DNA from: an uncultured Polyangium sp.
Lineage (GTDB): Bacteria > Myxococcota_A > Polyangia > Polyangiales > Polyangiaceae
Length of the DNA stretch: 25,742 nt
Direction of reading: 5' to 3'
Assembly (NCBI GenBank): GCA_964435055.1
Contig: CAYSYX010000073.1
Coordinates: 1,996-27,737, forward strand
Shown here: piece by piece, positions 4,187 through 4,290 of the stretch
Layout of the letters: each line of letters starts with the position of its first letter
How positions within the stretch are numbered: position 1 is the first letter of the stretch
Translations under genes and position numbers: made by a program
Notes under the pieces: model-generated
The model's database searches: none
Told to the model about the DNA's origin: nothing
What the model saw: the letters and a program-made list of their open reading frames with translations, nothing else

Positions 4187-4208
4187 TTGCGTCGCGCAAG
4201 CGACGCAA
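4187..4208 (+). terminator. GC-rich hairpin with a GNRA (GCAA) tetraloop 13 nt after the kinase stop: ttgcgtcgc-gcaa-gcgacgcaa
   Basis: Perfect 9-bp inverted repeat with a 4-nt loop, read directly. No U-run follows, so it is not a canonical intrinsic terminator. Confidence 0.35.
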
Positions 4209-4215
4209 TGCCGGG

Positions 4216-4285
4216 GGCAAGGGGCCTCCGCCCCTTGCCGGATCGAGGGCGGGGAGCCCTCGTGGGGCGTGGGGCAACGCCCCAC
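4216..4285 (+). repeat. REP-like triple-hairpin intergenic element, copy A, between convergent genes
   Basis: Three hairpins: ggcaaggggc-ctcc-gccccttgcc, cgagggc-gggga-gccctcg, tggggc-aac-gcccca. Related copies occur at 14135-14198 and 25691-25742 (inverted) with compensatory stem changes. Confidence 0.6.
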
Positions 4286-4290
4286 TTTGA

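Follow-up and report, generated by a model that had tools for sequence, protein, structure and literature searches.

In the BIMEs of Escherichia coli, palindromic units of the GTAG type alternate in orientation. REP elements and REPINs more generally have been assigned to super-families tagged GTAG and CGTC (Di Nocera et al. 2013, PMC3733652; Bertels & Rainey 2011, PMC3116915). In many phyla, a terminator role has been proposed for hairpin clusters (PMC8355165).

We compared with these systems three hairpin arrays, designated copies A, B and C, that are present in a 25,742 nt stretch of DNA from an uncultured Polyangium sp.; this whole stretch is referred to as the window. The proteins of the window placed it in a Polyangium-like myxobacterium. 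All three sites probably represent a mobile DNA element that is REP/REPIN-like and non-autonomous. No description or name of the family was found in the literature covered; this coverage was incomplete and earlier descriptions may exist.

Organisation of the hairpin arrays

Copies A, B and C were confirmed to be homologous hairpin arrays, far above chance expectation. A preliminary description of the window had reported hairpin arrays at A, at B and, inverted, at C, and their coordinates (Table 1), their mutual homology and a comparison with shuffled sequence all bore this out. A repeat finder showed 91% identity between A and C over 35 nt and 83% identity between B and C over 29 nt. The window contained two clusters of at least three perfect hairpins, plus one cut by the window end, compared with 0.01 such clusters per window in dinucleotide shuffles (n = 200) and 0.35 clusters per 25.7 kb in random sequence at the elements' own 77% GC. 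The array of copy A began 42 nt and ended 111 nt past the stop codon of the kinase gene (4172 bp–4174 bp), and the predicted folding energy of the intergenic region around it was −78 kcal/mol for RNA (z −6.5) and −44.5 kcal/mol for DNA (z −6.3).

The three-hairpin architecture that had been described proved correct for hairpins H1 to H3 but incomplete, as an arm consists of four hairpins (H0–H3): a further, AT-richer hairpin, H0, lay upstream in each arm and had been missed. Likewise, of the stems of 10 bp, 7 bp and 6 bp given for copy A, the first two were as stated and H3 was 7 bp; the stem differences quoted among the copies were right. The plan of an arm was H0, H1, GGGT, H2, (T/C)GGGT, H3 (CTGGGN...NCCCAG); H1 to H3 had a G-rich 5′ side and a GGGT-type tag preceded both H2 and H3. 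In an alignment of 63 sequences this tag, GGGT/GGGGT (GGAT in copy A), was invariant or near-invariant.

A covariance model, R1, was built from ten sequences from other phyla (the source groups were Streptomyces, Clostridia, Acetobacteraceae, Armatimonadia and Magnetococcales) and contained none from Polyangium or the window. R1 detected all three copies, with E-values of the order of 1e-7 to 1e-9, and only these three fell below E = 0.1 in the window. As the model came from other phyla, its detection of A, B and C indicates a cross-phylum family and not a genome-specific one.

The window was 99.6% identical to contig WBZU01000718.1 (L001). On this contig the left arm of copy C was complete, and beyond it came a spacer, in which two further hairpins were present, and a forward arm, designated copy D. 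Copy D is the right half of C's dimer and is situated just past the window end, such that C, described at first as a separate inverted array, belongs to a dimer. The complete C–D dimer was present in the twin contigs L001 (9889 bp–10,125 bp), L002 and L004.

Table 1. Coordinates of the hairpin arrays in the window and of the RAYT-like genes in other loci (L165 is the closest relative at site A)
Feature	Locus	Coordinates	Strand	Details
Copy A insertion	Window	4192..4289	+	98 nt (±1), no counterpart in L165; flanked by shared TTGTTGCG and ATTA
Copy A H0	Window	4187..4208	+	ttgcgtcgc gcaa gcgacgcaa, 9-bp stem
Copy A H1	Window	4216..4239	+	10-bp stem, loop ctcc
Copy A H2	Window	4244-4262	+	7-bp stem, loop gggga
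Copy A H3	Window	4269-4285	+	7-bp stem, loop aac; alternative 9-bp stem 4262-4285
Copy A two-hairpin core	Window	4240..4285	+	ggat + H2 + tggggcg + H3; R1 46.6 bits, E 2.5e-9
Copy B H0	Window	14102..14126	+	tcgatttggcc gaa ggccgaatcga, 11 pairs including one T·G; related to H0 of the L048 copy
Copy B H1	Window	14135..14150	+	ccagga ctgg tcctgg
Copy B two-hairpin core	Window	14154..14198	+	gggt + H2 (14158-14178) + tgggt + H3 (14184-14198); R1 36.2 bits, E 6.5e-7
Copy C, left (inverted) arm of head-to-head dimer	Window	25691..25742	-	R1 38.4 bits, E 2e-7
Copy C hairpins	Window	H3′ 25691-25705, H2′ 25711-25729, H1′ from 25736	-	H1′ cut by window end
RAYT-like gene	L160	4519-5535
RAYT-like gene	L248	4001-4924
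RAYT-like gene	L249	364-1272
RAYT-like gene	L250	3001-3972

The remainder of the window contained other repeats and genes. Between 1 bp and 105 bp, upstream of the kinase gene, there were three tandem 35-nt units (ATCCCCTTGCCCACAATTCACACCCCGCGGCCTCA), two of them perfect and one at 71%; with these units at its start and copy C at its end, the window resembles a whole contig that was broken at repeats on both sides. The genes at 323 bp–4174 bp (+) and 17,765 bp–21,607 bp (−) encoded paralogous proteins of ~1280 aa with Pkinase, AAA_16 and TPR domains, and stretches of inverted DNA similarity were common to the two. The 947-aa protein encoded between 11,237 bp and 14,080 bp (+) matched Pfam Vault_3 and MVP_shoulder, which identifies it as a homologue, in bacteria, of the major vault protein of eukaryotes; it was conserved, with synteny, in sister species. 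A 15-nt tandem repeat (CGCGTTGTCCGTCAG, ~8 units) at 17,246 bp–17,407 bp lay within the ORF at 16,658 bp–17,524 bp (−), where it would encode a pentapeptide repeat.

Copy number and dimers in the source assembly

A 22-base signature of the D-type arm was used as a search query and matched 82 metagenome loci, 48 of which were on contigs of WBZU01, the assembly of the window's twin contig. The source assembly, with 49 sites that bear one arm signature, contained at least 49 arms beyond the copies in the window. The WBZU01 loci had a GC content of 58.2 ± 1.1% and the window one of 58.8%. R1 found 96 cores in these loci, which resolved into 42 dimers. The REP/BIME-like character that had been proposed, i.e. 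an extragenic, high-copy family with inverted dimers, was upheld by these counts; the scope of this result is a sample of ~0.5 Mb of the source genome, in loci picked because they bear the element.

Most arms of the source assembly are in head-to-head dimers of ~235 bp. All 42 of the opposite-strand neighbour pairs in the source assembly were in the order (−,+), as were 14/14 in other phyla among the matches listed, where the order (+,−) did not occur. The two arms of a dimer were unlike each other and were arranged head to head around a conserved spacer, which fell into classes of 118–123 nt and 142–148 nt with a few longer examples at 182 nt and 214–217 nt. The ends of the dimer were the outer base of each H3: alignment of the dimers showed high conservation throughout and none directly outside H3 on either side. 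The sequences flanking 40 dimers contained no direct repeat that could represent a target-site duplication. Solitary arms, A and B among them, were common and complete.

In one locus (L222), a host gene encoding an RCC1-repeat protein lay between a duplicated left arm and a right arm (5055 bp–5200 bp and 7113 bp–7276 bp), and the spacer hairpin ttggtttgtcc…caaaccaa was present as a separate copy on each side of this gene. The arrangement suggests a dimer that was split by, or recombined around, ~1.9 kb of DNA. The possibility that the gene between the arms marked an autonomous copy of the element was rejected on account of its RCC1-repeat product.

Comparison of the insertion sites with those of related genomes

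At site A the stop-to-stop spacer between the convergent genes was 116 nt in the window, compared with 15 nt, 8 nt and 12 nt in L165, L164 and L163, which encode DUF2330 proteins with 89%, 75% and 72% identity respectively. Alignment with L165 defined the limits of the copy A insert (Table 1), and comparison of its junctions with this empty site revealed no target-site duplication. At site B, the spacer between the vault-protein gene and the phosphoesterase gene lacked copy B in the syntenic loci L159 and L160, the phosphoesterases of which showed 81% and 80% identity. Searching the seven sister-species loci with R1 gave no match, at E < 0.01 in the 77 kb of L159–L162 and at E < 0.001 in L163–L165. 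A copy-B-like arm (92% over 73 nt) was present at a non-orthologous locus of another Polyangium species, and other Polyangium genomes contained near-identical arms and dimers at unrelated loci in which the internal spacer was conserved too.

Since the sister species lack A and B at the syntenic sites, both copies are to be read as insertions and not as conserved terminators. The comparison shows what appear to be recent insertions of both copies into very short spacers just past stop codons; loss of the copies from the relatives could in principle give the same distribution. The earlier suggestion of a MITE-like mobile repeat is, as far as mobility is concerned, in agreement with the empty syntenic sites and with the near-identical copies at non-orthologous Polyangium loci.

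In copy A, H0 begins with 5 nt (TTGCG, 4187 bp–4191 bp) of the sequence shared with the element-free L165, such that this H0 pairs old flanking DNA with inserted DNA. The overlap could be due to chance, to target-dependent pairing or to an excision footprint. A target-derived H0, differing from one copy to the next, was rejected for the dimers, as H0 was conserved between copies; such an origin may apply to copy A alone.

Two direct TGTCCGG repeats (ctgtccggaaagctgtccgggtac) were found upstream of the phosphoesterase gene between 14,241 bp and 14,264 bp. This promoter-proximal part was the only piece of the site B spacer to be conserved in all three species, and the repeats look like an operator or promoter element.

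Stem covariation and loop sequences

Covariation was analysed in 135 distinct cores from 100 loci in many phyla (among the matches listed), aligned with the covariance model, which favours pairing. Standard pairs made up 98.2% of the 1901 cells, both sides had changed in 14 of the 15 pairs, and double changes were found in 251 cells compared with 41 in shuffles; the signal was lost when the partner column was slid. The compensatory changes proposed from the three copies of the window are thus supported. The source family, again in a model-fitted alignment, gave similar values (97.9% paired; 161 double changes versus 40). A check independent of the alignment used the 20–23 nt that are left free by the search pattern given below: in 72 of 132 distinct matches, among those listed, this part held a perfect hairpin of at least 6 bp, compared with 3.95 in shuffles.

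Wobble pairs occupied ~24 cells of the 135-core set and mismatches 35 cells, and the source family showed the same pattern. On the tag strand, the loops were the purine-rich triplets GCA, GGA, AGC, AGA and GAA, and never their complements. In single-stranded DNA, a GNA triloop with a C·G closing pair has unusual stability. The near absence of G·U pairs, the strand-specific purine triloops and the stability of GNA loops together favour a DNA hairpin formed by the G-rich strand over an RNA structure, and the constraint thus looks to be at the DNA level. We infer this step, since a terminator acting as RNA in both directions would avoid G·U pairs likewise. Selection on RNA or DNA structure had been left as alternatives by the preliminary description; with G·U pairs as rare as mismatches, the DNA level looks the likelier of the two.

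Position relative to genes

As judged with a rough ORF caller, the outer end of the element was 1–41 nt (median ~14) from the nearest stop codon, and the sites comprised 16 convergent, 12 tandem and 6 divergent intergenic regions. A check for U-tracts revealed a T-rich tail, TTTGATT, which was called terminator-like, only after H3 of copy A; copy B was followed by cgcaaatc and copy C, in the sense of the MFS gene, by accctttc. No promoter-like site was seen near the elements.

Distribution in other phyla

The pattern GGGT-N20-23-GGGTCTGGG-N5-7-CCCAG matched 29 viral contigs and more than 117 genome loci, and most matches, among those listed, carried a hairpin in the free part. Among the matches listed, the pattern was borne by Streptomyces (frequently at the end of a contig), Clostridia (among them Ruminococcus flavefaciens MC2020, an isolate), Acetobacteraceae, Dehalococcoidia, Armatimonadia, Synergistaceae, Magnetococcales, Bradymonadia, Akkermansia, a Paceibacterota MAG and Polyangium, and the GC content of the host loci ranged from 43% to 73%. 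R1 detected at least 146 cores in the genome loci, and in MAGs of Acetobacteraceae there were as many as six within 8 kb. BLAST analysis of annotated collections with the consensus returned three Streptomyces plasmids and no phage, the 46-nt query being too short for this to be informative.

Regular tandem arrays of cores were observed in Streptomyces and in a Limiplasma MAG, with periods of ~100 nt, 155 nt and 26 nt (L099, 29 bp–375 bp; L151, ~6700 bp–7050 bp; L097, 7490 bp–7588 bp). Many of the Streptomyces matches, among those listed, were less than 200 nt from a contig end.

Search for a mobilising enzyme

No mobilising enzyme was found, and clustering of the ORFs near the elements revealed no recurrent gene family beside them. 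The clusters consisted of translated repeats and ABC transporters only, the latter being the sole neighbour common to different phyla. RAYT-like genes were present in Polyangia and scored 51.7 bits against NCBIfam NF047646, below its cut-off of 80. None of the four in Table 1 was flanked by the element, including that of L250, an element-bearing Polyangium MAG. A tblastn search over 1.9 Mb of loci, in which the source genome was covered in part, found no other RAYT-like gene.

The RAYT-like family was widespread in Polyangia (Sorangium, Polyangium and Minicystis); Pfam did not recognise it and NCBIfam did so weakly. Twin GGCGGCCGCCACC palindromes preceded these genes and CCGTGGTTG/CAACCACGG motifs were found on both sides of them; the genes and the three motifs may constitute a separate REP system. 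On a Dehalococcoidia MAG, a degraded RAYT-like frame (…VVLPERLHCV…) with stop codons was observed ~280 nt from an element (L073, 1407 bp–1520 bp, −). It matched E. coli RayT with E 7e-4, a value obtained with an approximate query sequence, and the remnant was set aside as too weak a link to the element.

Discussion

Two explanations other than a REP/REPIN-like element are a classical MITE and a terminator. A MITE would be an internally deleted DDE-type insertion sequence, mobilised by a transposase that binds its terminal inverted repeats, and the ~235 bp dimers with their inverted arms, conserved interior and sharp termini, as well as the high copy number and the polymorphism between species, are what such an element would present. 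However, target-site duplications were lacking, the stem sequences differed between the two arms of one dimer, single arms (A and B) were common and complete, and the loci searched contained neither a parent insertion sequence with the same ends nor a transposase between arms, where only the RCC1-repeat gene was found. We therefore regard a MITE as unlikely. Intrinsic hairpin-cluster terminators or 3′-UTR stabilisers, evolved and maintained at the RNA level at each gene end, would agree with the position of most copies ~1–40 nt from a stop codon, the over-representation of convergent regions, the very stable RNA folds, the terminator-like tail after H3 of copy A and the clusters already proposed as terminators in many phyla. 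Yet the sister species manage with 8–15 nt and no hairpin at site A and with no element at site B, near-identical sequence is found in other species as well as at unrelated loci, there is no U-tract after most copies, G·U pairs are tolerated no more than mismatches and some copies are in divergent regions. A terminator or mRNA-stabiliser effect on neighbouring genes is plausible, given the T-rich tail of copy A, but such a role cannot explain the origin of copies that sister species lack. It may fit a secondary function and leaves origin and spread unexplained; as the whole account it is improbable, somewhat more so than a MITE.

Two further readings concern what the palindromes do. They and their G-rich tags might be binding or structural sites in double-stranded or unwound DNA (for the nucleoid, gyrase or an IHF-type protein, as in BIMEs, or as a hairpin/G-quadruplex switch) that were spread by recombination. 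Symmetry restricted to Watson-Crick pairs would suit this, as would the conserved GGGT/GGGGT spacers, which with the G-runs provide four or more G-tracts per arm; but the stem sequence is free to vary while pairing is kept, as would be expected if a fold were recognised more than a duplex sequence, and the loop asymmetry indicates one strand. We consider sites in duplex or unwound DNA very improbable. Still less credible, and to our minds close to negligible, is a family of structured small RNAs or cis-regulatory RNAs. Covariation is strong and the Rfam likenesses are to multi-hairpin RNAs (sbcD 27.3 bits, RsmW 24.8 bits), yet these likenesses are below threshold and no Rfam family reached its gathering score, promoter-like sites were not seen nearby, the copies occur in both orientations relative to the flanking genes, wobble pairs are nearly absent and orthologous loci are without copies.

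For a REP/REPIN-like mobile element, which we consider the probable explanation, the following mechanism is proposed. The palindromes would fold as hairpins in single-stranded DNA, with the G-rich strand as the presumed active one, and a putative enzyme acting in trans, of the HUH/Y1 kind (RAYT or IS200-like) or of another kind, would recognise and copy them. The copies would land just past stop codons without target-site duplication. Transcripts from the neighbouring, often convergent, genes are probably also terminated or protected by an array once it is in place, as a by-product and not as the cause of its presence.

As a defined family, the elements have sharp ends, a polarity and a signature that can be searched for (GGGT + palindrome + GGGGT + CTGGGGC-nnn-GCCCCAG), where annotation would otherwise list them as "terminators" of one gene after another. 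Copies that have landed 1–40 nt past the stop codons of convergent genes provide natural experiments on how 3′ ends are formed. The repeats also matter for assembly, as contigs break at them: the window ends inside one and many Streptomyces matches are at contig ends.

More tentatively, and as a possibility that we would not yet favour, the GGGT-tagged tandem-hairpin elements may be a third, unnamed REP-like super-family beside GTAG and CGTC, common to Actinomycetota, Bacillota, Pseudomonadota, Myxococcota, Chloroflexota, Armatimonadota and others, which would keep a GC content of 65–85% even in hosts of 43–55% GC and be copied by a single-strand-DNA enzyme other than a repeat-flanked RAYT. 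If the cross-phylum family is truly homologous, it would represent widespread mobile or self-propagating DNA for which no enzyme has been identified, in parallel with the CGTC repeats that are without a dedicated transposase.

Comparison with known systems

At the gathering score, no Rfam family matched the window or 12 element-bearing loci, and the L001 dimer had no Rfam match whatever; weak likenesses appeared only at permissive E-values. The best of these for region A was to the sbcD RNA (RF01757; E 7e-4, with a score below the gathering score of 40), which is likewise a run of four GC-rich hairpins, but there was no common primary-sequence signature and RF01757 has no GGGT tags. With MITEs and PATEs, which are non-autonomous elements derived from insertion sequences, the element shares small size, lack of coding sequence, inverted ends, many copies and differences in presence and absence between related genomes; it differs from them in that there is no target-site duplication and no identifiable parent element, and in that half-elements occur alone.

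The likeness to E. coli BIMEs is in the mosaic of several unlike palindromic units that are joined by short, defined linkers at one intergenic site, whereas in the present element all units of an arm point the same way, and the sequences are unrelated. The agreement with REP elements and REPINs is the most extensive. Both are short extragenic palindromes of high copy number in which the stem is adjoined on one side by an unpaired tag of 4 nt, both are mostly found as head-to-head dimers with conserved spacers and often unlike partners, both favour sites downstream of genes and between convergent genes, and both lack target-site duplications and have super-families that extend across several phyla. 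In contrast, the tag here is GGGT (GGAT in copy A) and neither GTAG nor CGTC, the stems are rich in G and do not open with AT pairs as those of the CGTC repeats do, an arm is a same-orientation tandem of two to four unlike hairpins whereas head-to-tail arrangement is described as negligible in the known families, and no flanked RAYT gene was found. As the GTAG and CGTC tags are absent and no flanked RAYT gene was found in the loci covered, no membership of the GTAG and CGTC families or of the RAYT system is claimed. The elements are best filed as a GGGT-tagged, multi-hairpin, dimer-forming and recently mobile REP/REPIN-like repeat, which shares the REP-type features that were tested, apart from the tag and the flanked transposase.
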